Source: Escherichia coli
GTDB lineage: Bacteria > Pseudomonadota > Gammaproteobacteria > Enterobacterales > Enterobacteriaceae
Length of the DNA stretch: 64,000 bases
Reading direction: 5' to 3' (one strand)
NCBI RefSeq assembly: GCF_965641715.1
Contig: NZ_OZ282455.1
Part shown: piece after piece, positions 1 through 16,835 of the stretch
Numbering within the stretch: position 1 is the stretch's first letter
How the letters are laid out: the number at the start of each line of letters is the position of its first letter
Translations under genes and position numbers: made by a program
Notes under the pieces: model-generated
What the model saw: the letters and a program-made list of their open reading frames with translations, nothing else
Databases searched by the model: none
What the model was told of the DNA's origin: nothing

Positions 1-390
1 CTCATCTCCCTTTTCTATTGCTGTATGCATATACAGTATTCTAATAACTGAATCCACACACAGTCAAATGTCATTATTGTGACTAAAAAACGCTCAATTC
101 TCTGAGCGTGTGGCTGTATGCCTGCTGTGGACTGCTGTGTCCAGCTTATCCACAGCATTTTGCGCACGGTTCTGTGGACAAAATACCTGGTTACCCAGGC
201 CGTGCCGGCACGTTAACCGGGCTGCATCCGATGCAAGTGTGTCGCTGTCGCCGGCCTCCTCACCCGGTCACGTTTCGTCGTTCCTCCTCCACGCGCTGCG
301 GCTTCGGGGCCGCACCTGCATTCGTATGCGGTCGCCCGGTTACAGGTGCGGCACGGCCTGATGGAGGCCGCATGTGAGAGGAGAATTCCC

Positions 391-1317
391 ATGCCAAACT
401 GGTGCTCGAATCGTATGTATTTTTCTGGTGAACCGGCACAGATCGCTGAGATTAAACGACTGGCCAGCGGCGCAGTCACACCGTTTTATCGCCGCGCCAC
501 AAATGAAGGTATTCAGCTGTTTCTGGCCGGAAGTGCCGGACTTCTGCAGACCACTGAAGATGTGCAGTTTGAACCGTGCCCCGGACTGACGGCTGCCGGA
601 CGTGGTGTTGTATCGCCGGAGAATATCGCGTTCACACGCTGGCTGACACACCTGCAGAACGGTGTGCTACTGGATGAACAAAACTGCCTGATGCTGCATG
701 AACTCTGGCTGCAGAGCGGTACTGGACAGCGTCGCTGGGAAGGATTACCGGACGATGTCAGGGATACCATCACCGCACTTTTCACCGCAAAAAGAGGTGA
801 CTGGTGTGGCTTCTGGAGTAACGAGGATGTATCGGTGTGGTGGAACCGTCTTTGTGACAACGTACTGCCGGAAAAAACCATGCCGTTTGACCTGCTGACG
901 GTTCTGCCCACCCGCCTGGATGTTGAAGTGAATGGCTTTAACGGTGGTGTTCTGAACGGTGTTCCTTCTGCATATCACTGGTATACGGAACAGTATGGCG
1001 TGAAGTGGCCTGTGGGGTATGAGGTGAATATCAGCAGTCAGGGAGACAACTTCATTCAGGTTGATTTCGACACGCCGTGGTGTCAGCCGGAAAGCGACGT
1101 TATTGCAGAATTAAGCCGCCGTTTCAGCTGCACGCTGGAGCACTGGTATGCCGAACAGGGCTGTGATTTCTGTGGCTGGCAGTTGTATGAGCGCGGAGAG
1201 CTCGTTGATGTGCTGTGGGGGGAACTGGAATGGTCTTCCCCGACAGATGACGATGAGCTGCCGGAAGTCACCGGACCTGCGTGGATAGTCGACAATGTGG
1301 CGCATTATGGCGGATGA
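391..1317 (+). CDS. hypothetical leading-region protein (308 aa)
   Basis: Track ORF 346..1317; first ATG at 391 preceded by GAGAGGAG; Cys/Trp-rich; no motif I recognise. Confidence 0.55.
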   Translation: MPNWCSNRMYFSGEPAQIAEIKRLASGAVTPFYRRATNEGIQLFLAGSAGLLQTTEDVQFEPCPGLTAAGRGVVSPENIAFTRWLTHLQNGVLLDEQNCLMLHELWLQSGTGQRRWEGLPDDVRDTITALFTAKRGDWCGFWSNEDVSVWWNRLCDNVLPEKTMPFDLLTVLPTRLDVEVNGFNGGVLNGVPSAYHWYTEQYGVKWPVGYEVNISSQGDNFIQVDFDTPWCQPESDVIAELSRRFSCTLEHWYAEQGCDFCGWQLYERGELVDVLWGELEWSSPTDDDELPEVTGPAWIVDNVAHYGG

Positions 1318-1700
1318 AGTATGACGGAGACGGGCGGGAAACCGCCCGTTTCTTTTCCGACAAAGGATGTCGCCGTGCTCCTCTTTTTACTGCGCCGGCT
1401 GACGCGGCGCGGCATAAACGCTGCCTGTGGTCAGTGTCCCGCGTCCGGCGGGCACGGGACGGGCGCTTTTACCGCTCCCGGCTGGCGTCGGTGACAGTGT
1501 ACGCCAGCCCGTCGCCCTTTTCTGATGAACGCCCTTCAAGCCGCTTTCGCGGCATAACCTCGCCGTCAAAAAGACGACGGCTGCGGTATTCCACGGTCGG
1601 CCTGACCCGTTACCGGACGCGGTGAACAGCCCACAGGCAGCGGGGAACGGGCGCCACAGGGGTGCCCTCCCGGTGCCCTCTGTAAGAGAAGGAGTTTTGT

Positions 1701-2384
1701 ATGTCCCGTTTTATCCAGGGTAACTGCGTGCGTGTTATGGCCACGTTTCCGGGCAATGCTGTCGATTTCATCCTTACCGACCCGCCATATCTCGTCGGTT
1801 TTCGTGACCGACAGGGGCGTACCATCGCCGGCGATAAAACCGATGAATGGCTGCAACCGGCCTGTAATGAAATGTACCGCGTACTCAAAAAAGACGCGTT
1901 AATGGTGAGCTTCTATGGCTGGAACCGCGTCGATCGCTTTATGGCCGCCTGGAAAAATGCGGGATTCAGCGTGGTTGGCCACCTGGTCTTCACCAAAAAC
2001 TACACATCGAAGGCCGCATATGTGGGCTATCGCCACGAATGCGCCTACATCCTGGCAAAAGGCCGTCCACGTCTGCCACAAAACCCGCTGCCGGACGTGC
2101 TGGGCTGGAAATATTCAGGCAATCGCCATCACCCGACGGAAAAGCCCGTTACCAGCCTGCAACCGCTGATTGAGAGCTTCACACACCCGAACGCAATTGT
2201 GCTGGACCCGTTTGCAGGCAGCGGCTCAACCTGCGTCGCCGCCCTCCAGTCCGGACGCCGGTATATCGGTATCGAGCTGCTTGAGCAGTATCACCGTGTC
2301 GGGCAGCAACGCCTTGCCGCCGTGCAACGGGCCATGCAGCAGGGGGCCGCGAATGATGACTGGTTTATGCCGGAGGCTGCGTAA
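1701..2384 (+). CDS. orphan DNA amino-methyltransferase (N6-adenine/N4-cytosine class)
   Basis: DPPY catalytic motif near N-terminus and FAGSGST SAM-binding motif near C-terminus; no restriction endonuclease gene adjacent. Confidence 0.85.
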   Translation: MSRFIQGNCVRVMATFPGNAVDFILTDPPYLVGFRDRQGRTIAGDKTDEWLQPACNEMYRVLKKDALMVSFYGWNRVDRFMAAWKNAGFSVVGHLVFTKNYTSKAAYVGYRHECAYILAKGRPRLPQNPLPDVLGWKYSGNRHHPTEKPVTSLQPLIESFTHPNAIVLDPFAGSGSTCVAALQSGRRYIGIELLEQYHRVGQQRLAAVQRAMQQGAANDDWFMPEAA

Positions 2385-2606
2385 ATGAACTATGCCGGAC
2401 ACGAAAAACTTCGCGCCGAAGTGGCGGAGGTGGCCAATGCCATGTGTGACCTGCGTACAACCATGAATGAGATGGAGCGGCGGTACAGCTTTAATGCTGA
2501 CACCCTGCCGGAACGTCTGGTGCGTCAGACGTTGTTTCGCGCAAACCGCCTCCTGATGGAGGCATATACCGAAATTCTTGAACTGGATGCGTGCTTCAAA
2601 GATTAA
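2385..2606 (+). CDS. hypothetical protein (73 aa)
   Basis: Track ORF; start overlaps stop of methyltransferase gene (TAAATG), suggesting translational coupling. Confidence 0.45.
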   Translation: MNYAGHEKLRAEVAEVANAMCDLRTTMNEMERRYSFNADTLPERLVRQTLFRANRLLMEAYTEILELDACFKD

Positions 2607-2618
2607 GGAGGAGACGAA

Positions 2619-3053
2619 ATGTACGGAACATGCGAAACGCTCTGCCGTGAGCTGGCAGCAAAGTATCCGGGAAACACGCCGCTGATGCTGCTTATCTGGT
2701 CCCCGGAAGAGATTCAGGCACTGGCCGACGGTATGGAAATTTCTCTGACCGATCATGAAATCAGGACTGTCCTGGCGCACCTGGAGGACATCCCGGAAGA
2801 CCAGCGGACTGAGTCCGGTATTTCTTCCGCCGCGGCGATGGAGATTATCAGCAACGTGAGCGAAAACCGCCTGGTGACCGTCCCTGCTGAACTGCTGGCG
2901 TCCCTGATTCAGACCGCTGAACAGGCACTGTGGAAACGTGAATGGGCCGCCCGTGATAACGGCCTTGCCGTCCCGGAATGTGTTACCCGCCGTCAGGCAG
3001 TGATTAATCAGGCCCGCACCCTGCTGAAAAACAACACACACGAAAACAACTGA
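2619..3053 (+). CDS. hypothetical protein (144 aa), paralog of 4762..5184
   Basis: Track ORF with AGGAGG-like SD; shares SLTD.E..TV...L.D and VTVPA motifs with ORF 4762..5184. Confidence 0.6.
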
Positions 3054-3103
3054 TGTTATCGCCGCCTGCCCTGCGGGCGGCGATACAGGGAGAACGCTTA
3101 ATC

Positions 3104-3874
3104 ATGAACAAAACGCTGAATGCACTGGTTTGTCGTCACGCCCGTAACCTGCTGCTGGCGCAGGGCTGGCCGGAAGAGACGGATGTTGACCAGCGAAATC
3201 CGAACTATCCGGGCTGGATCAGCATTTACGTGCGGCTGGATGCGCCCCGGCTGGCGACGTTACTTATCAACCGTCACGGCGGCGTACTGCCGCCGCTCCT
3301 GGCCTCCGCCATTCAGAGACTGACCGGAACCGGGGCGGAACTGGTACTGTCCGGCAGTCAGTGGCAATCGCTGCCGGTACTTCCGGCAGACGGAACGCAG
3401 GTGTCTTTCCCGTATGCCGGAGAATGGCTGACCGAAGACGAAATCAGGGCTGTTCTTGATGCGGTGCACGATGCGGTACGAAGCATCTGTTACCAGGTGG
3501 CAGACGATGCGCGGCGTATCCGTGCGGCGCTGACCACCACCGGTCAGACGTTGCTGACCCGCCAGACGCGCCGCTTTCGCCTGGTCGTGAAGGAAAGCGA
3601 TCACCCCTGCTGGCTCGATGAAGATGACGAAAACCTGCCCGTGGTGCTCGATGCCATCGTGAACCGGGGAGCACGTTTTTCGTCGGTGGAAATGTACCTG
3701 GTCAGCGATTGTATTGAGCATATCCTGTCCAGTGGGCTGGCCTGCGATGTGCTGCGTATACCTGATGAATCGCCCCGCCGCTGGTTTGACCGTGGTGTTC
3801 TGCGGGAGGTGGTCCGGGAAGCCCGGACCGAAATCCGCAGCATGGCGGATGCCCTGGCAAAAATCCGGAAATGA
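3104..3874 (+). CDS. hypothetical protein (256 aa)
   Basis: Track ORF 3053..3874; ATG at 3104 follows a stem-loop (3056..3082) and a GGGAGA SD-like sequence. Confidence 0.55.
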
Positions 3875-3882
3875 TGACACTG

Positions 3883-3905
3883 GCGGGGAAAATCCCCGCC
3901 TTTTT
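3883..3905 (+). terminator. Rho-independent terminator
   Basis: GGCGGGG-aaaat-CCCCGCC hairpin followed by TTTTT directly after stop of 3104..3874. Confidence 0.5.
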
Positions 3906-3932
3906 CCTGCCGGTCCCCGGACAGAGCACAAA

Positions 3933-4270
3933 GGAAGTCGCCGCCGGCTCCGCTTTACCCGGCCATGCAGAGCATGGCCTTGTGGTTTTCAGTTATGTGG
4001 CCTCAGCGTCGTGTGCGGGCTGTGCCGTGCCTCCATCTTAGCCGGGCTGGCGTTGATGCAAGGGTACGCTTCGCCGCTGCGGTCACCCGGTCCCTCCTTC
4101 CCGTCTGCCGTGATTTTCCGGTCGTTCACCCGCTCAGATTTCGCGGTCTCACCCTCCAACTCCCGCCAGCCGTGTGCGTCAGGCTGCGGCTTCCCTTGCG
4201 CCCCTGCATCCCCGCCTTATCGCCCGGCTTTTCTGGAGGCACGGCACCGCCCGGTGTCGCGGAATATGTG
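3933..4270. repeat. dispersed leading-region repeat, family A copy 1 (candidate ssDNA promoter / ssi element)
   Basis: About 340 nt nearly identical to 10878..11218; GC-rich, non-coding, ends about 20 nt before klcA start. Confidence 0.7.
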
Positions 4271-4289
4271 AACAACGGAGGAAAACATC

Positions 4290-4715
4290 ATGCAATATGC
4301 GAAACCTGTCACTCTGAACGTTGAAGAGTGCGACCGTTTGTCTTTTCTGCCTTACCTGTTTGGCCAGGATTTTCTGTATGCCGAAGCGTCTGTATACGCG
4401 CTGGCGAAACAAATGATGCCGGAATATGAAGGCGGATTCTGGCACTTCATCCGCCTGCCGGACGGTGGCGGTTACATGATGCCGGACGGTGACCGTTTCC
4501 ACATGGTGAACGGTGCAAACTGGTTTGACCGTACCGTGAGTGCTGATGCCGCAGGCATCATCCTTACCTCCCTTGTGATTAACCGCCAGTTGTGGCTGTA
4601 CCACGACAGCGGGGATGCAGGACTGACCCAGCTTTACCGGATGCGCGATGCGCAGTTGTGGCGTCACATCGAATTTCACCCTGAATGCAACGCGATTTAC
4701 GCAGCACTGGACTGA
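4290..4715 (+). CDS. klcA: KlcA/ArdB-family antirestriction protein
   Basis: 141 aa; RLSFLP, GGFWHF and C-terminal AIYAALD motifs matching my memory of KlcA/ArdB. Confidence 0.8.
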
Positions 4716-4761
4716 TTAACGGACGGGGCGGCAATGCCGCCCCTGTAAAGGAGACGAGAAC

Positions 4762-5184
4762 ATGTACTGTACTGTTAAAGAAATTATCCGTGATGTACTG
4801 GATACAGACGTGCCGGACAGTGAATGCGTTTTTGCCGTGGTGCTGACCCGTGGGGATGTGCGTCACATAGCCCAGGACTGGAGTCTGACAGACGATGAGC
4901 TGGAAACCGTCATGCAGCGGCTGGACGATGCCTTTGAATATGGTGCGGATGTCAGCGTTGTTCACGGCGTTGTTCGTGAACTGATGGAAGAAAAGCGCGC
5001 CAGCCGTCAGGTGACAGTCCCGGCGGTGATGCTGGAAAAAGTGATGGCGCTGGCAGGCAGTGAAATGAAGCGCCTGTATGCCGTCGGGAGTGAGAACGGG
5101 GGCGACGGTGACGCATTCGTCAGGGAGGAACGCGAAGCAATGGACGTTGTGTTACAGGCGCTGGACGGGGAGACGATGTCATGA
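4762..5184 (+). CDS. hypothetical protein (140 aa), paralog of 2619..3053
   Basis: Track ORF with GGAGACGAG SD; shared motifs with 2619..3053. Confidence 0.6.
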   Translation: MYCTVKEIIRDVLDTDVPDSECVFAVVLTRGDVRHIAQDWSLTDDELETVMQRLDDAFEYGADVSVVHGVVRELMEEKRASRQVTVPAVMLEKVMALAGSEMKRLYAVGSENGGDGDAFVREEREAMDVVLQALDGETMS

Positions 5185-5372
5185 ATATCAGCACAGAAAC
5201 CCGCGAAATTCTGCGCAATTACAAAGCCGTGATTAATGCGCGGCGTCGTGAAATGGGGCAGAAACCGCTCACCACTGCGCAGATTGTTGATGAAATCTGC
5301 GATTTTGTGGCGAATCAGCAGGCGGTTTTCCTCGGTGGTCACTATATCCTTCAGGGCAGCAGAAACAGGTGA
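5181..5372 (+). CDS. hypothetical protein (63 aa)
   Basis: Track ORF; start overlaps upstream stop (ATGTCATGA). Confidence 0.4.
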   Translation: MNISTETREILRNYKAVINARRREMGQKPLTTAQIVDEICDFVANQQAVFLGGHYILQGSRNR

Positions 5373-5411
5373 TACAGGGCAGGCGGTAGAGGCCGCCTGT
5401 CAGCCCGCGCG

Positions 5412-6125
5412 AAAACCCCTGGCAGGCTGACGCCTGCCGGAAATGCGGGGTGCAGCGCCTGCGGCGCTGCCGGCCCGGCTTTCCGGTCAGAAGGTAGTGT
5501 ATGGCTGTATGCAGGGAACAGGTGTGATATTCCGTGACACTGTCACTGTTTCTGGCTGTCTTTTATTGCGCCCACTTCGGCTCCCGGCTGCCTGGCGGCA
5601 TCCGGTCGTCAGGCCCGACTCCGACAGGCAGCTGCTGGCGCACCCGCCAGTCTCCGCCGAACCCGCTGGCGCGGTTTCGGGCTGCCGCTACGGTCCGATG
5701 CGTGAAAACCCGGCTTGCAGCGACCGTTCCGGTCGCGCCGCCCCTGTCGCGCCGTGACCTGCGCTCCCTGCACACCTGACGGTGTGTGAGGAAACTGCGC
5801 CTGATGGCGCAGCAGTCTTCCCTCCTGCCGCCACCCCTGCGGCCTGTTTCCCGCTGTGGACTTTCCGGGGGGCAGACGTAACCCCCTCCCGTTCCATCTG
5901 TCCAGGGTGAGATGCACCGGCCACAAAATTTTTAGCCATGAACCCGGCTAAAAATTTTGCGTCCGCCCCCGGACAGCTGTCCCGTGAGGCGGTAAACGGG
6001 CCCCCATCGGAAAGGTCCACTGCGGGGAGAAACCCCTGTGAAGTGGACGGCAGGAGGAGCTTTCGCTCCTCTGAAGGGGCACATGAACGTCCCGTCGCCG
6101 GTATCCGGTTTATCTCACATCTTTC
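5412..6125. repeat. dispersed leading-region repeat, family B copy 1 (candidate ssDNA promoter / Frpo-ssi-like element)
   Basis: About 700 nt highly similar to 11782..12445; 3' part (about 5745..6125) also shared with 14961..15315; contains AT-rich palindrome CAAAATTTTTAGCC-N9-GGCTAAAAATTTTG; ends at ssb SD. Confidence 0.7.
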
Positions 6126-6140
6126 AGTCAGGAGGTTCTT

Positions 6141-6668
6141 ATGAGTGCACGTGGTATCAACAAGGTCATCCTCGTCGGGCGTCTGGGCAATGATCCGGAA
6201 GTCCGTTACATCCCCAACGGGGGCGCAGTGGCAAACCTGCAGGTGGCCACATCAGAAAGCTGGCGTGACAAACAGACGGGGGAGATGCGGGAGCAGACGG
6301 AATGGCACCGCGTGGTGCTGTTCGGCAAGCTCGCGGAAGTGGCAGGTGAATATCTGTGCAAGGGTGCGCAGGTCTACATCGAAGGTCAGCTTCGCACCCG
6401 TAGCTGGGAAGATAACGGTATCACCCGTTACGTCACTGAAATTCTTGTTAAGACCACGGGCACCATGCAGATGCTGGGGAGTGCACCACAGCAGAACGCT
6501 CAGGCGCAACCGAAGCCTCAGCAGAATGGGCAGCCACAGAGTGCTGACGCGACGAAAAAAGGTGGCGCGAAAACGAAAGGCCGTGGACGTAAGGCCGCGC
6601 AGCCCGAGCCTCAGCCGCAACCGCCGGAGGGGGAGGATTACGGGTTTTCAGACGATATCCCGTTCTGA
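6141..6668 (+). CDS. ssb: single-stranded DNA-binding protein (plasmid SSB)
   Basis: 175 aa; OB-fold N-terminus ([16 protein letters not shown]...), Gln/Pro-rich linker, acidic tail DDIPF. Confidence 0.95.
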
Positions 6669-6686
6669 CTGGCCTGACTGTGATAA

Positions 6687-6959
<273 letters not shown>

Positions 6960-7011
6960 GAGAGGTGCCGGACGCGCGAACGTCCGGCAGGACATAAGCA
7001 ATTATAAGGGG

Positions 7012-8976
7012 ATGATTATGCCTGTAACGAAGTGTGAACCAGAAACCACCCGCAAAGCAAGCCGTAAATCTGCAAAAACGCAGGAAACAGTCCTGTCTGC
7101 CCTGCTGGCGCAGACGGAGGAAGTGAGCGTGCCGCTGGCCTCACTGATTAAGTCACCGCTGAATGTGCGCACGGTGCCGTATTCTGCGGAGTCCGTCAGC
7201 GAACTGGCAGGGTCCATTCAGGGCGTCGGACTGCTGCAGAATCTGGTCGTGCATACCCTGCCTGGTGAGCGCTACGGTGTCGCCGCAGGTGGTCGCAGAC
7301 TGGCAGCACTCAATATGCTGGCTGAGCGTGGAATCATTCCGGCTGACTGGCCTGTCCGCGTGAAAATTATTCCGCAGGAACTGGCGACGGCTGCATCGAT
7401 GACCGAGAACGGTCATCGCCGGGATATGCACCCTGCCGAACAGATTGCCGGATTCCGCGCAATGGCGCAGGAAGGCAAAACAGCGGCACAAATCGGTGAT
7501 TTGCTGGGCTATTCACCCCGCCACGTTCAGCGAATGCTGAAACTGGCAGACCTTGCGCCTGTCATCCTTGATGCGCTGGCAGAAGACCGCATCACCACAG
7601 AGCACTGTCAGGCGCTGGCGCTGGAGAACGACACCGCGCGTCAGGTGCAGGTGTTTGAAGCTGCCTGTCAGTCGGGATGGGGCGGAAAACCGGAAGTACA
7701 GACCATTCGTCGTCTGGTGACCGAAAGTGAAGTGGCGGTGGCGGGGAACACTAAATTCCGCTTCGTGGGGGCTGATGCCTTCTCGCCAGATGAACTGCGC
7801 ACTGATTTGTTCAGCGACGATGAGGGTGGCTATGTGGACTGTGTTGCGCTCGATGCCGCCCTGCTGGAAAAACTCCAGGCTGTTGCAGAGTACCTTCGGG
7901 AAGCTGAGGGCTGGGGATGGTGTGCCGGACGCATGGAGGCCGTTGGTGAGTGCCGTGAAGATGCCCAGGCATACCGCAACCTGCCGCAGCCGGAAGCAGT
8001 GCTGACGGAGGCGGAAGAAGAACGCCTGAACGAACTGATGGCACGTTACGACGCACTGGAAAACCAGTGTGAGGAATCTGACCTGCTGGAAGCAGAAATG
8101 AAGCTGATGCGCTGCATGGCGAAGGTCAGAGCGTGGACGCCGGAGATGCGTGCCGGAAGCGGTGTGGTGGTGTCCTGGCGTTATGGCAACGTGTGTGTCC
8201 AGCGTGGTGTGCAGTTGCGCAGCGAGGATGACGTGGCTGACGACGCTGACCGCACGGAACAGATGCAGGAGAAAGCGTCAGTGGAGGAAATCAGTCTGCC
8301 ACTGCTGACGAAAATGTCTTCCGAACGCACGCTGGCAGTCCAGGCGGCACTCATGCAGCAACCGGACAAATCTCTGGCACTGCTGGCATGGACGCTCTGC
8401 CTGAATGTGTTTGGCAGCGGGGCGTACAGTAGTCCCGCCAGAATTTACCTGGAATGTGGGCATTACTCACTGACCAGCGCTGCGCCGTCAGGGAAGGAAG
8501 GTACCGCATTCATGGCGCTGATGGCAGAGCACTTTCGCCTTGCTGCCCTGCTGCCGGATGAATGGGAACGGGACATGACGACGTTCCTGTCACTCAGCCA
8601 GGAGGTGCTGTTATCCCTGCTCAGTTTCTGCACTGCATGCAGCATCCACGGCGTTCAGACCCGTGAGTGTGGTCACACGTCACGCAGTCCGCTGGACTCG
8701 CTGGAAACCGCCATCGGCTTTCACATGCGCGACTGGTGGCAGCCGACAAAAGCAAACTTCTTCGGACACCTGAAAAAGCCGCAGATTATCGCAGCCCTGA
8801 ATGAGGCAGGACTGTCCGGTGCCGCACGGGACGCGGAGAAGATGAAGAAAGGTGATGCGGCTGAACATGCAGAGCACCATATGAAAGACAACCGCTGGGT
8901 TCCAGGCTGGATGTGTGCACCACATCCACAGACAGATGCCACTGAACGCACCGATAACCTGGCTGATGCCGCCTGA
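7012..8976 (+). CDS. ParB-like nuclease-domain protein (large leading-region ParB/Srx homolog)
   Basis: Track ORF 6928..8976; ATG at 7012 after AAGGGG; N-terminal ParB box (VAAGGRRLAAL) followed by HTH-like segment. Confidence 0.8.
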   Translation: MIMPVTKCEPETTRKASRKSAKTQETVLSALLAQTEEVSVPLASLIKSPLNVRTVPYSAESVSELAGSIQGVGLLQNLVVHTLPGERYGVAAGGRRLAALNMLAERGIIPADWPVRVKIIPQELATAASMTENGHRRDMHPAEQIAGFRAMAQEGKTAAQIGDLLGYSPRHVQRMLKLADLAPVILDALAEDRITTEHCQALALENDTARQVQVFEAACQSGWGGKPEVQTIRRLVTESEVAVAGNTKFRFVGADAFSPDELRTDLFSDDEGGYVDCVALDAALLEKLQAVAEYLREAEGWGWCAGRMEAVGECREDAQAYRNLPQPEAVLTEAEEERLNELMARYDALENQCEESDLLEAEMKLMRCMAKVRAWTPEMRAGSGVVVSWRYGNVCVQRGVQLRSEDDVADDADRTEQMQEKASVEEISLPLLTKMSSERTLAVQAALMQQPDKSLALLAWTLCLNVFGSGAYSSPARIYLECGHYSLTSAAPSGKEGTAFMALMAEHFRLAALLPDEWERDMTTFLSLSQEVLLSLLSFCTACSIHGVQTRECGHTSRSPLDSLETAIGFHMRDWWQPTKANFFGHLKKPQIIAALNEAGLSGAARDAEKMKKGDAAEHAEHHMKDNRWVPGWMCAPHPQTDATERTDNLADAA

Positions 8977-9030
8977 TGAACAACCACACCGCCCCGCCGG
9001 AGACGGGGCGGCAGCAAGGGAGATACCGTG

Positions 9031-9465
9031 ATGAAAACTGAACTGACCCTGAATGCCCTGCAGTCCATGAACGCACAGGAATATGAAGATATCCGTGCTG
9101 CGGGAAGCGATATGCGCCGTAATCTCACTCACGAGGTGATGCGTGAAGTGGACGCACCGGCTAACTGGATGATGAATGGCGAGTATGGCAGTGAGTTCGG
9201 GGGCTTTTTCCCCGTCCAGGTTCGTTTCACGCCAGCCCACGAACGTTTCCACCTGGCATTATGTTCGCCGGGAGACGTCTCTCAGCTCTGGATGCTGGTT
9301 CTGGTGAATTGTGGTGGACAGCCTTTCGCCGTCGTTCAGGTGCAACATATCTTCACGCCTGTCGCTATCAGTCACACGCTGGCGCTTGCCGCGACACTTG
9401 ATGCGCAGGGGTACAGTGTTAACGACATCATCCATATCCTGATGGCAGAAGGAGGTCAGGCATGA
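9031..9465 (+). CDS. psiB: plasmid SOS inhibition protein PsiB
   Basis: About 144 aa; [27 protein letters not shown]... matches PsiB as I recall it. Confidence 0.95.
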
Positions 9466-10181
9466 GCGCACGTTCACGGGCACTGATCCCCCTCAGCGCA
9501 GAGCAACAGGCCGCCATGCAGGCTGTGGCTGTCACCGAACAACGTCGTCGTCAGGGACGCACACTTTCAGCATGGCCTTATGCCAGCGCTTTCTTTCGCT
9601 GCCTGAATGGCAGTCGCCGGATTTCGCTGACCGATCTCCGCTTTTTTGCTCCTGCGCTGACGAAGGAGGAATTTCATGGCAACCGTCTCCTGTGGCTGGC
9701 TGCCGTGGATAAACTGATTGAAAGTTTTGGTGAAGTCTGTGTTCTTCCCCTGCCATCCGATGCGGGGCATCGTCTGTTCCCGTCCGTTCCTTTTCGTGAA
9801 GGTGAGCGGCGTCGTCAGAAAACCACGCTGACAGAGCAGAAATACAGCCGCCAGCGGGAACGTGAGGCAGAACGACGGGAACTGGAATACCAGACATGTT
9901 TTGCTCAGGCGCAGATTGACCTTGCGTTTCATACTCCCGCCACGGTCGGAAGCTGGTTGTCCCGCTGGTCTGGTGTTGTTGAGGAGCATGATCTGGAAAC
10001 GATTTTCTGGGGGTGGTGCGGGCGTTTTCCATCACTGTCATCATTTGACCGGTTTTTCTGGCAGGAGGAACCACTCTGGCGGCTGATTTTTGAAGCCGGT
10101 GAGGCCGGTCGTGGTGCACCGGTACAGGTACGTGCACTTGAGCAGTGGATGATCCCGAACAAGCTGGAGAACGCAATATGA
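9462..10181 (+). CDS. psiA: plasmid SOS inhibition protein PsiA
   Basis: 239 aa, start overlaps psiB stop; matches PsiA as I recall it. Confidence 0.9.
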
Positions 10182-10774
10182 TGAAATCAGACGAACAATA
10201 TCACGTTCCCGTGTGGATGCGACCTCTGTTGCCGTTGCTCTGCAATACCGGTGGTAATGATCCGGAGGAACTGCTGAATGATACAGAAACCACCGCCAGT
10301 GCGAATATTGTCCGTTATGTACTGATAGTTGCAGTGCGGTCGCAGATTGATCTGCTGCAGCTACTGTACAGGAAAGGACTGTTGCGCACAGAGATACCAG
10401 GTGGCTTTTCACCGGAAGAAGCGCAGGAACTCCTGGATAATCTGGTGCGCAGCCATATCAGCAAGGCGCTGTCGGGTGAGCGAATGGCAGCCCGTGACAG
10501 AAATGCCGATCTGACCTGGATTCGCCAGCAACTGGTCGATGCCGCCTGGTTTGTCCGTGCCACACTGGAAGCGCATGGGATGGGCGTCGGAAATGAGAGT
10601 CCCTCTGCTCCGCCGGAGACAATGCCGGACATACAGACACGGGAACTGGTTATGTTGATCAAGCGACTGGCATCATCGCTGAAAGCGGTGAAACCCGACA
10701 GTAGCGTGGTGCGTGAAGCGCAGGACTGGCTGTGCGACAGAAAACTTGTGGATATCACAGATATTCTCCGGTGA
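10178..10774 (+). CDS. hypothetical protein (198 aa)
   Basis: Track ORF 10145..10774; ATG at 10178 overlaps psiA stop. Confidence 0.55.
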   Translation: MMKSDEQYHVPVWMRPLLPLLCNTGGNDPEELLNDTETTASANIVRYVLIVAVRSQIDLLQLLYRKGLLRTEIPGGFSPEEAQELLDNLVRSHISKALSGERMAARDRNADLTWIRQQLVDAAWFVRATLEAHGMGVGNESPSAPPETMPDIQTRELVMLIKRLASSLKAVKPDSSVVREAQDWLCDRKLVDITDILR

Positions 10775-10877
10775 ACCAGACATGTATATTTTACGCAGGG
10801 ACACGCCGATCATGATCGTTTCATATCAGGGGTGGTCTGGAGGTCATGCGGCGTGTCCTCTGCACTCGCCGGAATAA

Positions 10878-11218
10878 GGAAGTCGCCGGCGGCTCCGCTT
10901 TTACCCGGCCATGCGGGGCATGGCCTTGTGGGTTTTCAGCTCTGTGGCCTCAGCGTCGTGTGCGGGCTGTGCCGTGCCTCCATCTTAGCCGGGCTGGCAG
11001 GGATGCAAGGGTACGCTTCGCCGCTGCGGTCACCCGGTCCCTCCTTCCCGTCTGCCGTGATTTTCCGGTCGTTCACCCGCTCAGATTTCGCGGTCTCACC
11101 CTCCAACTCCCGCCAGCCGTGTGCGTCAGGCTGCGGCTTCCCTTGCGCCCTGTGCATCCCCGCCTTATCGCCCGGCTTTTATGGAGGCACGGCACCGCCC
11201 GGTGCCGCAGAACATGTG
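10878..11218. repeat. dispersed leading-region repeat, family A copy 2 (candidate ssDNA promoter / ssi element)
   Basis: Near-identical to 3933..4270; ends about 18 nt before ardA start. Confidence 0.7.
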
Positions 11219-11236
11219 ACTATGGAGGATTCGGGA

Positions 11237-11737
11237 ATGTCTGTTGTTGCACCTGCTGTATACGTTGGAACCTGGCACAAATACAACTGTGGAAGTATCG
11301 CCGGACGCTGGTTTGACCTGACCACGTTTGATGATGAGCGCGACTTTTTCGCCGCCTGCCGTGCTCTTCACCAGGATGAAGCCGATCCTGAACTGATGTT
11401 TCAGGATTATGAGGGATTCCCGGGGAATATGGCCTCTGAATGCCATATCAACTGGGCCTGGGTTGAAGGCTTCCGCCGGGCACGGGATGAAGGCTGCGAA
11501 GAGGCTTATCGTCTCTGGGTGGATGATACCGGTGAGACGGATTTTGACACCTTCCGCGATGCCTGGTGGGGCGAGGCTGACAGTGAGTAGGCTTTTGCGG
11601 TTGAGTTCGTCAGTGATACCGGCCTGCTGGCTGACGTGCCGGAGACGGTGGCGCTCTATTTTGACTATGAGGCGTATGCGCGGGATTTATTCCTGGACTC
11701 CTTCACCTTTATTGACGGTCATGTGTTCCGTCGGTGA
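11237..11737 (+). pseudogene. ardA: ArdA antirestriction gene interrupted by in-frame TAG at codon 118
   Basis: [20 protein letters not shown]... matches ArdA; reading frame stops at TAG 11588..11590 (…GEADSE*) and resumes in frame with the ArdA C-terminus (AFAVEFVSDTGLLADVPETVALYFDYEAYARD…RR*) to TGA 11735..11737. Confidence 0.85.
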
Positions 11738-11781
11738 TTTACTCCCCCGCTCCGGCGGGGGTATGGCCTGCCAGGCCGCCG

Positions 11782-12445
11782 GAAAACCCTGGCAGGCTTA
11801 CGCCTGCCTGAAATGCAGGAGGGCCGCGCCTGCGGCGCTGCCCTTCCTGCCCGTCATGGTGTGAGGCATTTTTCTGTTATGTCGTTTCTGTTGTTCTGAT
11901 TTCCGGAGGCGGGGACACCTTCGGCTCCCGGCTGCCTGGCGGCATCCGGTCGTCAGGCCCGACTCCGACAGGCAGCTGCTGGCGCACCCGCCAGTCTCCG
12001 CCGAACCCGCTGGCGCGGTTTCGGGCTGCCGCTACGGTCCGATGTCTGAAAAACCAGGCTTGCAGCGACCGTTCCGGTCGCGCCGCCCCTGTCGCGCCGG
12101 AAACGGCGCTCCCTGCACACCTGACGGTGTGTAAGGCCACTGCGCCTGATGGCGCAGTCAACCCTTCCGCCGCCACCCCTGCGGCCTGTTTCCCGCTGTG
12201 GACTTTCCGGGGGCTGGAGTAACCACATCCCGTTTCAGCAGTCTAGGGGAAGATATACCGTCCACAAAATTTTTAGCCATAAACCCGGCAAAAAATTTTG
12301 CGTCCGCCCCCGGACAGCTGCCCCGTGACGTGGTGACGGACGCCCCATCGGAAAGGTCCACTGCGGGGAGAAACCCCGAAGAAGTGGACGGCAGAAGGGG
12401 CTTTCGCCCCTCCGGGGAGCAACCGGTCGGCCCGGCGACCTGATT
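11782..12445. repeat. dispersed leading-region repeat, family B copy 2
   Basis: Similar to 5412..6125 over about 660 nt; ends at SD of ORF 12466. Confidence 0.7.
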
Positions 12446-12465
12446 CAGCAGAAGGAGACGTTTTC

Positions 12466-12900
12466 ATGACAGTCAGCAGCACGATTTCCGTTTTTTGCCG
12501 CGACGGGGTGTTCCGTACCGTTTACTGCCACCTGCACGGGGAGCCGACCTGGAACGGTCGCATCCTGCATACCCACTATGCCACCGGTCAGCAGGCCGAA
12601 GCCCTGGTTGAACACGGTGATATCCGTTGCCTCGGTCCCCGTTGCGACAAACCCGCCGGGCATACGCTTCAGAACCCGGTGGACGGTGTGACGGCTTATT
12701 ACGGACGTGACAGTGGTTTCCGGATGGACAGTGAGGCGCGTGAGTACCGTTCTTTCAGGGAGGCTATTGCCACTGAAAGCACTGAAGAGGTGCGCTTCCA
12801 TTATGTGTTCATCGACGGCTACTGGAAGGTGATGTACCGCACGCCGGAAGGCTGGAAGATGAAAGCGCTCGCGCTGGCACTGCGTCGCTGTCCGAAATGA
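12466..12900 (+). CDS. hypothetical protein (144 aa)
   Basis: Track ORF with GAAGGAGA SD; immediately downstream of family B repeat; hairpin after stop. Confidence 0.6.
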   Translation: MTVSSTISVFCRDGVFRTVYCHLHGEPTWNGRILHTHYATGQQAEALVEHGDIRCLGPRCDKPAGHTLQNPVDGVTAYYGRDSGFRMDSEAREYRSFREAIATESTEEVRFHYVFIDGYWKVMYRTPEGWKMKALALALRRCPK

Positions 12901-12993
12901 AAAAAAGGCAGGGCGATAAACCCTGCCTCTCTCCGCCGGCGCTTCCCCGCCAGGAAGTCCGGCATCTCAATCACTATCTATGGAGATTATGCC

Positions 12994-13260
12994 ATGAGAC
13001 CATCAATTATCTTCGCAACCGCCGAGTATGTAAAGCGTCTGCGTGAAGAGTGCCTGCGGGAGAATAAACCCCTGCACCGCCATACCCGCTTCAGACGTCA
13101 GGAGCTGGCACAGGATGAGATTAACCCGGACGTCCTGGCGATGAGCGGCCATATCGCCAGACGCTGCAGTGAGCAGAAGCGGGTGCGTATCCCCGCTATG
13201 AAAGTCAGCGAATGGGGCCACCTGCTCCGCGCGCTTGAAATTGAGCGGGTCTGCCACTGA
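12994..13260 (+). CDS. hypothetical protein (88 aa)
   Basis: Track ORF with GGAG SD. Confidence 0.5.
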   Translation: MRPSIIFATAEYVKRLREECLRENKPLHRHTRFRRQELAQDEINPDVLAMSGHIARRCSEQKRVRIPAMKVSEWGHLLRALEIERVCH

Positions 13261-13324
13261 TTAACCCTTGCCGTCTGCCTGTGCAGGCGGCAGGATACGT
13301 TCAGACATCTCACCAGGAGGAACC

Positions 13325-14251
13325 GTGAGTAAGAAGAAAACCACCACGACGCCCACGCCGCATGATGCCGCGTTCCGGTCGTTCCTGGCGAATCCCGACG
13401 TCGCCAGAGATTTTCTGGAACTGCATCTTCCGGCGGAGTACCGGCAGTTGTGCGACCTGTCCACGCTGAAGCTGGAACCCGCCACCTTTGTTGAGCCGGA
13501 CCTGCATCAGTACGCCAGCGATATCCTCTGGAGTGTGAAAACCACCGGGGGTGAAGATGGCTATGTTTATACGCTCATCGAGCACCAGAGCACCGAAAAT
13601 CTGTACATGCCTTTCCGCATGTTACGTTACAGTGTGGCGGCGATGCAGAGACATCTGGAGCAGCACAAAACGTTGCCACTGGTCATTCCGGTGCTGTTCT
13701 ATCACGGTGAGCGCAGCCCGTACCCGTACAGCATGAACTGGCTGGACTGTTTTGAGAATCCGGCGCTTGCGGCTAAAATATACACAAAGCCGTTTCCGCT
13801 GGTTGATATCACTGTCGTTGATGACAATGAAATCATGAACCATCGCCGGATGGCCGCACTGACGCTGCTGATGAAGCATATCCGCCATCGTGACATGATG
13901 GAGCTGCTGGACAAACTCCCGCAGGTCATGGTGGAAATTTCAGACGAGCAGGTGCGTGTTCTGATTCATTACATCGTTAACGCAGGGGACTCTGTATCAC
14001 CGGAATTTATGCGGGCGCTGGCTGAGCGTCTGCCGCAGCATGAGGATAAACTGATGACTATCGCAGAACGTCTTGAGCAAAAAGGTCGCCAGGAAGGCAG
14101 GATGGAAGGACGCATGGAAGGACGCATGGAAGGAGCGCTTGAAAAAGCCCTGGCTATTGCGTGCCAGCTTCAGAAAATGGGGATGACGCCGGAGCAGATT
14201 AAGCAGGCTACCGGACTTTCCGATGACGAACTGAAGAAAATCACTCACTGA
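13325..14251 (+). CDS. Rpn-family recombination-promoting nuclease (YhgA-like, PD-(D/E)xK)
   Basis: Track ORF 13268..14251; GTG at 13325 after CAGGAGG; YhgA-like N-terminal region; C-terminal tandem GRMEGRMEGRMEG repeat (about 14096..14134). Confidence 0.75.
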   Translation: MSKKKTTTTPTPHDAAFRSFLANPDVARDFLELHLPAEYRQLCDLSTLKLEPATFVEPDLHQYASDILWSVKTTGGEDGYVYTLIEHQSTENLYMPFRMLRYSVAAMQRHLEQHKTLPLVIPVLFYHGERSPYPYSMNWLDCFENPALAAKIYTKPFPLVDITVVDDNEIMNHRRMAALTLLMKHIRHRDMMELLDKLPQVMVEISDEQVRVLIHYIVNAGDSVSPEFMRALAERLPQHEDKLMTIAERLEQKGRQEGRMEGRMEGRMEGALEKALAIACQLQKMGMTPEQIKQATGLSDDELKKITH

Positions 14252-14262
14252 GTAAACATCAC

Positions 14263-14288
14263 AGCCCGGCAAAATGCCGGGCTTTTTT
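14263..14288 (+). terminator. Rho-independent terminator
   Basis: AGCCCGGC-aaaat-GCCGGGC followed by TTTTTT after Rpn stop. Confidence 0.6.
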
Positions 14289-14312
14289 GTCAGCAGGAGC
14301 AGAGCAAACAGC

Positions 14313-14471
14313 ATGACGATTGCAGAACGTCTTATTCAAAAAGGCGCACTTGAAGTGGCGCGGGAAATAGCCTGCCGGCTGCGGGATATGGGCTGGACGC
14401 CGGAACGGATTCAGGAGGCAACCGGACTTTCCGGTGAAGAACTGAAAAAGCTGTTTCCTGATGAGCAGTAG
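14313..14471 (+). CDS. small protein homologous to the Rpn C-terminal tail (RpnS/YpaA-like)
   Basis: 52 aa (MTIAERLIQKGALEVAREIACRL…) aligns with the last about 60 aa of the upstream Rpn protein but lacks the GRMEG repeats. Confidence 0.5.
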   Translation: MTIAERLIQKGALEVAREIACRLRDMGWTPERIQEATGLSGEELKKLFPDEQ

Positions 14472-14501
14472 CCTGGCATTCAGCCAGGCTGTGAATCACG
14501 C

Positions 14502-14753
14502 TCACACATCCTCTGCCGTTTCCCCCAGTTCATTTTCCAGTCGCCTGATGATATCTGCCTTACGCATCCCCTGCATGTGAGGCAGCAGGTCACGGACTGA
14601 AAGTGCCTGGGTGGTCCTCCAGACGGTGACGTCCACCTGTTCCGCATTTTCCCAGGCGTGCCATGTTCTCTGCGTCACGCCAAATTCTCTGGCCGCTTTT
14701 TCGCGTGACCAGAGCATGCTTTTTCGCCAGATTCGCAGTTCCCAGCCGGTCAT
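14502..14753 (-). CDS. small HTH DNA-binding protein (XRE/Cro-like candidate regulator)
   Basis: 83 aa; HTH-like segment SREKAAREFGVTQRTWHAWEN; AAGGTG SD; divergent from leading genes. Confidence 0.6.
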   Translation of the reverse strand: MTGWELRIWRKSMLWSREKAAREFGVTQRTWHAWENAEQVDVTVWRTTQALSVRDLLPHMQGMRKADIIRRLENELGETAEDV

Positions 14754-14767
14754 AAAACACCTTTAAA

Positions 14768-14788
14768 AAAGTGAAAAAACTTCACTTT
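14768..14788. promoter_or_regulatory. operator-like palindrome AAAGTGAA-N5-TTCACTTT (site 1)
   Basis: Perfect 8-bp inverted repeat about 15 nt upstream of the HTH gene start. Confidence 0.5.
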
Positions 14789-14834
14789 ATTTTATCATCA
14801 TAATCACCAAATTAACGCGATAAATAAGTGTGAA

Positions 14835-14855
14835 AAAGTGAAGAAATTTCACTTT
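14835..14855. promoter_or_regulatory. operator-like palindrome AAAGTGAA-N5-TTCACTTT (site 2)
   Basis: Second identical palindrome 67 bp from site 1 in an AT-rich divergent promoter region. Confidence 0.5.
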
Positions 14856-14960
14856 TTTTGCTTGTAAATGTCGTGCGGTTTTCTCTGTTTTCACCTGTGC
14901 GGGAGTGGTGTGCCAGTGACCACCACATGCCATTGTTGTGCCGTCGTTTTTCTTCAGTCG

Positions 14961-15315
14961 CGCCGTATGCGGCGCTCCCTGCACACCTTACGGTGTGTAA
15001 GGCCACTGCGCCTGATGGCGCAGCTGTCTCTGCCTGTCTGCCGCCGCACTGCGGCCTGTTCTCCGCAGACGGACTTTCCGGGGGTACATACATGACCACA
15101 TCCCGTTTCAGTCGTCCAGGGGAGAGATGTACCAGCCACAAAACTTTTTGCCGCAGGCGTCAAAAACTTTTGCGTCTGCCCCCGGACAACTGCCCCGTGA
15201 CGTGGTGAGCGTCCCCCGTCGGAAAGGTCCACTGCGGGGAAATCCCCGAAGACCCGGACGGCAGAAGGAGCTTCGCTCCTCCGGGAAATGACCTGGCTGA
15301 CCCGGCAGTCGTGAC
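14961..15315. repeat. dispersed leading-region repeat, family B copy 3 (3' unit only)
   Basis: Matches only the 3' about 355 nt of copies 1 and 2; ends at SD of ORF 15330. Confidence 0.65.
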
Positions 15316-15329
15316 GATGAGGAGACAAT

Positions 15330-16181
15330 GTGATGAATCAGACTTTACCCACTGCTGACCTGAATACTGCCGGCACGACAGATGTTATTCCGTCTGTGGC
15401 TATCGACCGCATCATCGCGCAGCGTAACGAAGGTATTGCACTGTTCATGCAGGCGATGGAATGCCTGGCGACAGCGCGCAAGATTCTGCTCGATGCGTCA
15501 GGTGATATTTTTCTTTACGGGTTTGAAGACTGCGTGACTGATTCCGTTCGTCGCATAGATAAACCGGAAGAAGCGAAAAGGAATATCACCCGTCTTGCCG
15601 ACCGGAAAATCTGGGATCGCCTGATGACAGATACGGGCATGTACACCTTCATGAGTTCATGCCAGCGTGATGAGTGGAACAGCCAGCTGATGAGCGACAC
15701 CTGTCCTGAAATCACCCTGGACAATGTACTGGCAACATTCCGCCATCTGAATGCCTGCAAGATGCAGACATTTGAACAGGGACTGATTGATGTCTACCGG
15801 AAATTGTCATGGGATTACAGAACCAATAATCCCTGCCGTCTGGGTAAGAAAATCATTATTGAAAACCTGCTGTACCGCTGGAGTAACGGGCGTGTGACGC
15901 TGGACTGCAGCGGACGGGAGGCACTGGATGACCTGGTACGTCCGTTTTATCTGCTGGAGGGGCGCAACGTTCCTGACTTCAGGAACAGTATCGGGGCGCA
16001 GTATGGTGAATTTCTCGGGAACGGCGACAATGTCGGTAAGCTGTTAGAAGGGGAATATTTTACGGTGCGTGGCTACCAGAAAGGGACCGTACACATTGTC
16101 TTTAAGCGTTCTGACCTTGTTGAAAAACTGAATGATATTATTGCACGGCATTATCCAGGTGCATTGCCGCCACGAGTCTGA
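15330..16181 (+). CDS. hypothetical protein (283 aa), oriT-proximal leading gene
   Basis: Track ORF with GAGGAGA SD; hairpin plus T-run after stop. Confidence 0.6.
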   Translation: MMNQTLPTADLNTAGTTDVIPSVAIDRIIAQRNEGIALFMQAMECLATARKILLDASGDIFLYGFEDCVTDSVRRIDKPEEAKRNITRLADRKIWDRLMTDTGMYTFMSSCQRDEWNSQLMSDTCPEITLDNVLATFRHLNACKMQTFEQGLIDVYRKLSWDYRTNNPCRLGKKIIIENLLYRWSNGRVTLDCSGREALDDLVRPFYLLEGRNVPDFRNSIGAQYGEFLGNGDNVGKLLEGEYFTVRGYQKGTVHIVFKRSDLVEKLNDIIARHYPGALPPRV

Positions 16182-16266
16182 TTAAACAGAAAAGCCCTGG
16201 TATTTATGCCGGGGCTTTTTTTTCTGTAATCATCATAATCTCAGAACACGATGTGACATTGTCACA

Positions 16267-16602
16267 TCAATTGTTGTTCATATCGATGCCATCTTTCCTG
16301 CCTGAATCTGTCTTTTTAGGTGCTGTTTTAGAGGAAGAACGGCGGGATGGTTTTTTCGATTCTGCTTCCCGAATAATGTCACGAAGTGCCTTCTCTCCTA
16401 CTTCATACCCTGCATTTTTGAGCGTGTCACGAACATCTGCCAGTGTATAACCCTTTGTCCTTACCAGGACAATAATGTCATCACGAATGGCATCAAGAAA
16501 ATCACGCAATGTTTTCCGTTGAGCGGTGAGATCTGGCAATTCCGATAAAGCAGCTTTTGCCAGCTGGATGTCATCATCTGAGTAAAATTTTTTAGAAGCC
16601 AT
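16267..16602 (-). CDS. hypothetical small protein with basic C-terminal tail (111 aa)
   Basis: Track ORF 16267..16608 (GTG); ATG at 16602 with GGAGAG SD; tail SKKPSRRSSSKTAPKKTDSGRKDG suggests nucleic-acid binding. Confidence 0.5.
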   Translation of the reverse strand: MASKKFYSDDDIQLAKAALSELPDLTAQRKTLRDFLDAIRDDIIVLVRTKGYTLADVRDTLKNAGYEVGEKALRDIIREAESKKPSRRSSSKTAPKKTDSGRKDGIDMNNN

Positions 16603-16660
16603 TGGCACTTTCTCTCCGTTTCATGTTGAAGTCTGATTTTATCATCAAAAACTGACTCCT

Positions 16661-16791
16661 GGCAGGGCTGCGCCCTGCCTCTGCCGTCTGCATAAGACTA
16701 TGATGCACAAAAATAACAGGCTATAATGGCCTGAAAAACGGGACAGGATGTGCAATTGTAATACCGTCACACGCGACGCTATTACAATTGC
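16661..16791 (-). other. oriT: oriT (origin of transfer) with predicted nic site on the - strand
   Basis: 12-bp inverted repeat GCAATTGTAATA / TATTACAATTGC (16752..16763, 16780..16791); on the - strand the repeat is followed by ACATCCTG then TCCC, matching the IncP-type nick consensus ATCCTG|Y, which places the nick between + coordinates 16744/16743, 8 nt from the repeat; second palindrome GGCAGGGCTGCGCCCTGCC at 16661..16679; directly upstream of nikA. Confidence 0.7.
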
Positions 16792-16835
16792 CATCTGGTC
16801 AGGGCTTCGCCCCGACACCCCGTAAGGAGCCTGAA

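Follow-up and report, generated by a model that had tools for sequence, protein, structure and literature searches.

Four uncharacterised leading-region genes from an IncI plasmid of Escherichia coli appear to form three modules and are candidates for restriction evasion

Six operons in the leading region of plasmid pESBL, that of the methyltransferase M.EcoGIX included, are induced up to ~500-fold 15 min after mating (PMC12672017), each of them being preceded by a hairpin single-stranded DNA (ssDNA) promoter whose start was mapped by 5' rapid amplification of cDNA ends (PMC12672017). These promoters comprise three of class 1 (ssi/Frpo type), two of class 2 (before klcA and ardA) and one of class 3 (before M.EcoGIX) (PMC12672017); the homologous operon of plasmid F is also enriched, and expression of the M.EcoGIX operon, silent in established donors, is transient on entry (PMC12672017). 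The present analysis concerns a stretch of 64,000 nucleotides (nt) of Escherichia coli DNA (assembly GCF_965641715.1, contig NZ_OZ282455.1; hereafter the window) and, within it, a block of four open reading frames (ORFs; positions 391 to 3874) for proteins of 308, 73, 144 and 256 amino acids (aa), here named DUF1281, YubE, DUF1380 and YchA/YubG, which an initial annotation had singled out as anti-defence candidates. Comparison among plasmids leads us to infer that the block is not one unit, and that it would be composed of three modules, namely DUF1281, YubE plus DUF1380 with the methyltransferase, and YchA/YubG. Their products are proposed, with about an even chance of this being right, to be establishment proteins that act by protein binding and help incoming DNA to evade restriction-type barriers.

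The first 12 kilobases (kb) of the window are 100% identical to the IncI plasmid pRKI3099a; the plasmid records that match the region number more than 5000, a lower bound taken among the matches listed. In pRKI3099a this region is bounded at its left end by a divergent impCAB/umuDC-like operon and on the other side by nikA/nikB (origin of transfer, oriT), the latter ~13 kb downstream of the block, with oriT/nikA at ~16.8 kb in the window. The ORF list has all four ORFs on the plus strand exactly where the initial annotation placed them, and the annotation of pRKI3099a agrees with its further claim that known leading-region genes (methylase, klcA-type antirestriction, ssb, ParB-like, psiB, psiA and ardA) are interleaved and co-oriented with them; the window is therefore recognisable as the leading region of an IncI plasmid. 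Since the leading region is the first to enter and oriT is on the downstream side, the strand transferred (T-strand) is the minus one and thus the template for all these genes, an orientation consistent with that of operons read from ssDNA promoters, all genes being on the plus strand.

The window is also collinear with pESBL-EA11 (95% identity over 5.4 kb), with protein identities of 97% for DUF1281/Hp8, 99% for the 73-aa protein/Hp9, 90% for DUF1380/Hp10 and 92.5% for the 256-aa protein/Hp11 'YchA'. Plasmid F keeps the gene order of the window, its proteins being 77-94% identical, so that YubB, YubE, YubF and YubG of F and Hp8, Hp9, Hp10 and Hp11 of pESBL are orthologues of the four products studied here. 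Promoter regions, terminators and Pfam assignments (DUF1281, YubE/PF27407, DUF1380) are alike in the three plasmids, without substantive difference except that the DUF1281 gene is frameshifted in F, and that the YubE allele of the window is of the pESBL type (98.6%) and not of the F type (77%). Given this collinearity, the experimental literature on pESBL and F applies to the window.

The four families correspond to leading-region families 27 (DUF1281), 7 (DUF1380), 10 (YchA/YubG) and 11 ('Cytoplasmic/YfcA') (PMC11541004), the last one identified as the 73-aa ORF by its position between DUF1380 and the methylase. They are uncharacterised, rank among the 30 largest leading-region families and are statistically enriched there (PMC11541004), lying on the T-strand-transcribable strand ('1') at median gene positions 18-22 from oriT (PMC11541004). 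Against anti-CRISPR and anti-restriction sets they are given as 'NA', except for 10 of 3556 YchA-family members that match ArdA (PMC11541004) and are probably gene fusions. Many such uncharacterised families have been argued to be probably anti-defence (Samuel & Burstein, Nature 2024; PMC11541004); thus, the anti-defence hypothesis for them is already published, plausible and unproven.

The region upstream of the methylase is 96.9% identical to its pESBL counterpart and 96.3% to that of F and, by this similarity, is the homologue of the pESBL class 3 ssDNA promoter (ssp3 in F). It is followed by a gene for a methyltransferase with 91% aa identity to pESBL M.EcoGIX, and then by YubE, whose ATG directly abuts the methylase stop (TAA-ATG), and by DUF1380, starting 12 nt after the YubE stop codon. 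A hairpin-forming region, as in other ssDNA-promoter operons, is hence found upstream of the methylase operon, while DUF1281 is preceded only by a structured region without clear promoter boxes. In the first minutes after entry into the recipient, the M.EcoGIX operon would be transcribed from the hairpin promoter of the incoming strand, to be silenced once the DNA is double-stranded, YubE and DUF1380 (YubF) being promoter-distal genes, putatively linked in an obligate manner to the ssDNA methyltransferase, and YchA/YubG a fourth gene that would have been appended to the operon and elsewhere would travel alone beside KlcA/ArdA. Of the ssDNA promoters reported, even the sixth and last lies downstream of DUF1281, the stop codon of which is followed by a hairpin with a U-run, an indication that the gene is monocistronic; DUF1281 (YubB/Hp8) would accordingly be a stand-alone gene with its own terminator.

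Contiguity of methylase (or its remnant), YubE and DUF1380 is observed in the window and in seven further loci: pESBL, F, a Klebsiella scaffold (L010), an Enterobacter IncFIB plasmid (L015), Salmonella elements (L016 and L018/L020) and an Erwinia plasmid (L021). In every context examined YubE and DUF1380 come directly after the methylase or its remnant, with stops and starts abutting or overlapping (by 4 nt for the methylase stop and the YubE start of L015), and both are absent from the methylase-less leading regions L003, L005 and L007. This strict linkage suggests a methylase-tied role for YubE and DUF1380, whose extreme form would be that they only regulate or assist the methyltransferase, by limiting over-methylation, targeting the incoming strand or stabilising the enzyme, with no direct action on defence proteins. 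Such an explanation also concurs with M.EcoGIX being a weak enzyme that loses its activity on purification and with over-methylation being potentially lethal (PMC7736820). Nonetheless, it is considered somewhat unlikely, considering that (i) a DUF1380 paralogue at 4762-5184 (22% identical; annotated DUF1380 in RefSeq) follows klcA and not a methylase, (ii) M.EcoGIX alone methylates DNA and shows activity in vivo as well as in vitro (PMC7736820), and (iii) the methylase is cut short by IS110 in a widespread Salmonella plasmid/chromosomal element (L018-L020, 5069-9551) that keeps YubE, a tandem pair of DUF1380 genes, a YchA homologue (39% identity) and KlcA intact, which argues against their depending strictly on methylase activity.

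Between plasmids, no gene of the operon diverges more than YubE, with 77% aa identity to F, as against 92-98% for its neighbours, and 79.5% nt identity in L010, L011 and L013; two allele classes seem to have been exchanged by recombination. The exact YubE sequence of the L018-L020 element is indexed in 837 blocks of the collection.

Replacement of M.EcoGIX by a cassette in pESBL lowered transfer up to 1000-fold into EcoRI or EcoGIII recipients (PMC4288162), and M.EcoGIX is reported to protect against both in recipients, the deletion phenotype having been attributed to it (PMC4288162). In the part of that article covered by a text search no complementation or polarity control for the replacement was found (PMC4288162), and therefore downstream genes might contribute to the phenotype. 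Moreover, DNA modified by M.EcoGIX becomes sensitive to Mrr (PMC7736820), which provides a rationale for partners linked to the methylase. Transposon sequencing (TnSeq) of pESBL scored Hp8, M.EcoGIX, Hp9, Hp10 and Hp11 each at 1.00 as non-essential, with regard both to plasmid maintenance and to transfer into K-12 (PMC4288162).

Neither L015 nor L016 has YchA/YubG. In L003, L005 and L007, where the methylase trio is lacking, homologues of it at 23-30% identity lie immediately upstream of Antirestrict (KlcA) or ArdA genes, always in leading-region-like contexts and often with a DUF1281 gene before them. Structure is also seen in the intergenic regions that precede these distant homologues (z-scores of -3.7 to -5.3), a feature that is only suggestive, one coding control reaching -4.8. 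In-frame DUF1380::YchA fusions of 375 aa (P0070, P0098), joined at an ARxLL microhomology (…QAR(S/N)LL|LAQGWP…), are present in two diverged lineages (~20 contigs) and hint that the two proteins can work together.

The 256-aa protein has no Pfam, NCBIfam or PDB match and belongs to a small, Enterobacterales-only family (178 representatives among 1.84 billion proteins) that databases name YchA, NgrC or YubG. Its membership is indicated by full-length homology together with a common predicted fold: it displays 92% identity and a TM-score of 0.97 to UniProt YchA models, and matches phrog_8919 at 3e-136. An AlphaFold2 model built on a 22-sequence alignment reaching 24% identity is confident (pLDDT 91.5, predicted TM-score (pTM) 0.84) and shows a pair of alpha/beta domains with a connecting helix of 33 residues and, at the C-terminus, a long helix; a fold search with it returned no structural relative outside its own family. 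The residues conserved in the alignment are those of a GWP motif and of a WFDR stretch, together with a small number of Arg/Glu positions, and to our reading no obvious catalytic constellation can be seen among them.

DUF1281 matches PF06924 (DUF1281, 1e-49 over the full model), PF18406 (DUF1281_C, 3e-15) and the solved protein Api92 of Yersinia pseudotuberculosis (PDB 2IJR, E=1.4e-50, residues 3-274), and both profiles together with the solved member place it in the DUF1281/Api92-like family. The two proteins have in common an NWCxNR N-terminus and many invariant Trp, Gly and Pro residues, but they are only 34% identical, and the plasmid protein, very acidic (pI 4.35, net charge -25) and with 16 Trp, has an extra acidic C-terminal tail ending in VAHYGG. 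Api92 is a structural-genomics protein whose solved structure has led to no function. DUF1380 covers PF07128 in full (E=1.8e-50, model positions 1-137 of 137) and carries a net charge of -9, that of its paralogue being -16, with YubE and YchA near neutral. YubE gave no Pfam-A match in the scan run here and no PDB match; its membership of PF27407 ('YubE') is deduced via proteins 97-99% identical to it that carry this annotation precomputed.

Thus, the statement of the initial annotation that the four ORFs hold no recognisable motif does not stand for DUF1281, YubE and DUF1380, and is correct for YchA/YubG, which has no Pfam family; their description as uncharacterised holds throughout, since all assigned Pfam domains are of unknown function. 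When all ORFs were scanned against NCBIfam, PHROGs, PADLOC and Pfam, every family matched was a DUF or of unknown function; in the PDB, searched by sequence and by profile, 2IJR was matched by DUF1281 and nothing by the other ORFs, and PADLOC defence models gave no match at E<=0.1 for the four ORFs, a 198-aa ORF discussed below and the DUF1380 paralogue. Literature searches on gene names (yubB/E/F/G, ychA, ngrC and others) found no functional study. The common plasmid anti-CRISPRs AcrIE9 and AcrIE10 are reported to lie close to flmC. The structure prediction and profile searches that the annotation had suggested yielded the confident YchA/YubG model and no anti-defence match, nor did any homology to housekeeping or maintenance functions emerge, which the annotation had named as refuting its proposal. 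The anti-defence candidacy itself is favoured by context, published enrichment, dispensability in pESBL and early operon induction and disfavoured by the lack of similarity to any known anti-defence protein.

This lack of resemblance also favours the main rival explanation, namely that the four proteins are establishment factors not aimed at defence, with roles in host physiology, DNA processing (single- to double-strand conversion, priming, recombination) or SOS, like SSB, PsiB or HerB. The nearest precedent is HerB/YfjB, encoded ~3 kb downstream of the block (6928/7018-8976), a ParB-like leading-region protein of previously unknown function that is zygotically induced and reported to reprogramme host transcription and metabolism (PMC13370423); neither ssb nor psiB of the region is an anti-restriction gene, and M.EcoGIX itself has been linked to DNA polymerase I at single-stranded regions (PMC7736820). 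However, HerB has recognisable ParB CTPase and helix-turn-helix domains, whereas no DNA-binding or nucleotide-binding domain was detected by Pfam in the four ORFs. Their immediate neighbours are, on the contrary, all restriction-evasion genes (methylase, KlcA/ArdB, ArdA), this being so for YchA homologues down to 23% identity, and the genes are dispensable in K-12 laboratory matings (PMC4288162), where a general establishment role might show. A non-defence role for the four is consequently regarded as unlikely.

ArdA and KlcA/ArdB share with the four ORFs the region, the strand and the early-expression logic, are likewise small, acidic and soluble, and are their immediate neighbours in many plasmids. 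No sequence, profile or fold similarity to them was found, and anti-restriction by the four ORFs is a candidate activity only.

That the four ORFs are real conserved genes is indicated by their starts and by the selection acting on them. A plausible Shine-Dalgarno sequence is present at each: GAGGAG 7 nt upstream of the ATG at 391, GGAGG upstream of 2385, AAGGAGGAG before 2619 and AGGGAG before 3104. The start at 391, giving 308 aa, is favoured over the RefSeq one at 415 because the N-terminal residues (MPNWCSNR) align with the solved Api92 protein from its residue 3. For the last ORF, an alternative start at 3053 (273 aa) was rejected, its ATG lying inside the -25 kcal/mol intergenic hairpin and lacking a Shine-Dalgarno sequence. 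Ratios of nonsynonymous to synonymous change (pN/pS), computed against diverged plasmid copies at synonymous divergences up to 0.6, amount to 0.16 for DUF1281, 0.08-0.35 for YubE, 0.27-0.45 for DUF1380 and 0.24-0.35 for YchA/YubG, those of klcA and the methylase being 0.10-0.13 and 0.13-0.26, and point to purifying selection on all four.

These values, along with thousands of members per family at fixed positions relative to oriT (PMC11541004), synteny kept at 23-40% protein identity and the high confidence with which the YchA structure is predicted from a small alignment, make it very improbable that the ORFs are dispensable passengers without current function beside useful neighbours, despite their being non-essential in TnSeq (PMC4288162), the frameshift of DUF1281 in F (L017, NC_002483, 3856-4778), whose copy is split between two reading frames and is apparently a pseudogene, and the loss or decay of YchA in L015, L016 and L021. 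A role in plasmid maintenance or housekeeping (partition, replication control, stability) is hardly credible, even with ParM/StbA-type and ParA/ParB-type genes a few kb away here and in several related plasmids, for the four ORFs showed no homology to such families in NCBIfam, Pfam and PDB searches, TnSeq gave a probability of 0.00 for 'essential for maintenance' (PMC4288162), and the operon is reported to be silent in established donors and induced only on entry (PMC12672017).

Among the readings considered, the most economical one takes these small to mid-sized proteins, three of them reportedly made only as long as the plasmid is single-stranded in its new host, for establishment proteins that bind other proteins, with restriction evasion suggested by their neighbours. 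None of the four looks like an enzyme, as they appear to be soluble, acidic to neutral and without recognisable catalytic motifs, and both the binding to other proteins and the anti-restriction role are inferred here. YubE and YubF would assist or protect the methylase route, whether by serving M.EcoGIX as cofactors or regulators or by blocking modification-dependent restriction such as that by Mrr, while YchA/YubG and DUF1281 would, as a best guess, be independent inhibitors of recipient factors. A more tentative extension, possible but doubtful, is that YchA/YubG founds a new Enterobacterales-only anti-restriction or anti-defence family with a fold unlike anything solved, and that YubE and DUF1380 are dedicated M.EcoGIX partners, acting as subunits or as inhibitors of the Mrr-type restriction of the freshly methylated incoming strand.

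Several points weigh against restriction evasion by the four proteins. Searches at the sequence and profile level in NCBIfam, Pfam, PHROGs and PDB matched none of them to known anti-defence families, and the predicted models, of DUF1380 and YchA/YubG, showed no fold similarity to characterised anti-defence proteins. The model of DUF1380 is of moderate confidence (pTM 0.46), and the modules were traced over ~10 independent contexts. DUF1281 is in none of the six induced pESBL operons (PMC12672017), which, together with its frameshift in F, suggests that it may not act early, or may not matter. The activity of M.EcoGIX on its own and the integrity of YubE, DUF1380 and YchA beside the IS110-truncated methylase count here as well, and leading-region proteins can have other roles, as HerB/YfjB does (PMC13370423). 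Features of the block and of the surrounding leading region are collected in Table 1.

Table 1. Position and supporting evidence of genes and non-coding elements in and around the block (window coordinates unless a locus is named).
Feature	Position	Strand	Evidence or remark
DUF1281/Api92-like protein, 308 aa (F YubB, pESBL Hp8)	391..1317	+	Pfam and PDB match
YubE, 73 aa (pESBL Hp9, PF27407)	2385..2606	+	Start abuts methylase stop
DUF1380 protein, 144 aa (F YubF, pESBL Hp10), acidic, predicted all-helical	2619..3053	+	Pfam
YchA/YubG protein, 256 aa (pESBL Hp11), family Enterobacterales-only	3104..3874	+	Homology to named YchA/YubG
M.EcoGIX-type orphan ssDNA-specific adenine methyltransferase, first operon gene (context)	1701..2384	+	NCBIfam PRK13699, 5e-150
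Single-strand (T-strand) promoter region of methylase operon	1357..1700	-	344 nt, ssDNA fold -97 kcal/mol, z=-5.5
Terminator-like hairpin with U-run	1326..1353	+	RNA fold -24.3 kcal/mol, z=-5.2, 12-bp stem, then UUUUCC
Stable stem-loop without U-run	3057..3087	+	Junction of DUF1380 and 256-aa genes; RNA fold -25.3 kcal/mol, z=-3.7
Intrinsic terminator ending methylase operon	3882..3905	+	Terminator scan; RNA fold -16.7 kcal/mol, then UUUUU
Structured conserved non-coding stretch upstream of DUF1281 gene	108..390	-	T-strand fold z=-5.05
Direct-repeat pair	3954-4271 and 10900-11219		Intergenic; matches published class 2 ssDNA promoters (before klcA, ardA)
Direct-repeat triplet	~5410-6071, 11780-12412, 14916-15247		Intergenic; matches published class 1 (ssi/Frpo-like) ssDNA promoters
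198-aa ORF	10178..10774	+	Overlaps psiA stop codon by 4 nt
Homologues of the 63-aa ORF	L007 6088-6294; L018 13617-13808; L021 10512-10703		Directly after ArdA

Upstream of DUF1281, the non-coding stretch shares 96.5% identity with plasmid F and 98.3% with pESBL, and structure is likewise found in the regions that precede distant DUF1281 homologues (L003, L005). The hairpin arm of 108-390 contains no convincing -35/-10 pair, and one coding control was equally structured; the stretch could be a candidate cis element on the transferred strand, a seventh single-strand element. An Rfam search of positions 1-17000 gave no match. At the left end of the window, a promoter-like site on the minus strand (TTGACT-18-TAGAAT, 67..38) overlaps with a LexA-box-like palindrome, CTGTATGCATATACAG (21-36), which presumably serves the divergent impCAB operon as its SOS operator. 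RefSeq places a 103-aa 'hypothetical protein' at 1314-1625, which is probably spurious and not a gene, given that it overlaps the class 3 promoter hairpin and has neither a family match nor a signal of coding constraint.

Other small ORFs accompany the known leading-region genes. The 198-aa ORF, also named by the initial annotation, overlaps psiA in a way that points to translational coupling; searches of NCBIfam, Pfam and the PDB gave no match for it, and PHROGs only weak C-terminal ones of unknown function. A 63-aa ORF (5181-5372) after the DUF1380 paralogue recurs at ~55% identity directly after ArdA in distant plasmids, and by this recurrence is another small conserved leading-region gene. 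Scanned for divergent relatives of DUF1380, the genome collection yielded nothing but near-identical plasmid contigs, of which some belong to mislabelled or contaminated assemblies. Contigs 88-91% identical to the region (L011-L014) sit in assemblies labelled Streptomyces morookaense, Oscillibacter, Oscillospiraceae and Collinsella, enterobacterial plasmid contigs whose presence there is most likely due to contamination or binning error.

What is new here is the modular dissection of the block, the finding of YchA/YubG as a protein without structural relative and the caveat on the methylase deletion, no function being added. The block is best treated as three modules, and the published methylase deletion merits re-examination for polar effects; if YubE and DUF1380 are M.EcoGIX partners, part of the protection published for 'M.EcoGIX' might belong to the downstream genes. 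For a new mechanism, the most promising single candidate is YchA/YubG. Mutation of leading-region promoters already causes defects with the natural isolates HS, IAI1, B and ED1a. On the IncF and IncI plasmids, by which antibiotic resistance spreads in Enterobacteriaceae, the four families are among the commonest genes, and production of three of the four proteins is reported for the first minutes after entry, when the fate of the plasmid is decided. If the four proteins neutralise host barriers, they would account in part for the host range of plasmids and offer targets against plasmid spread.

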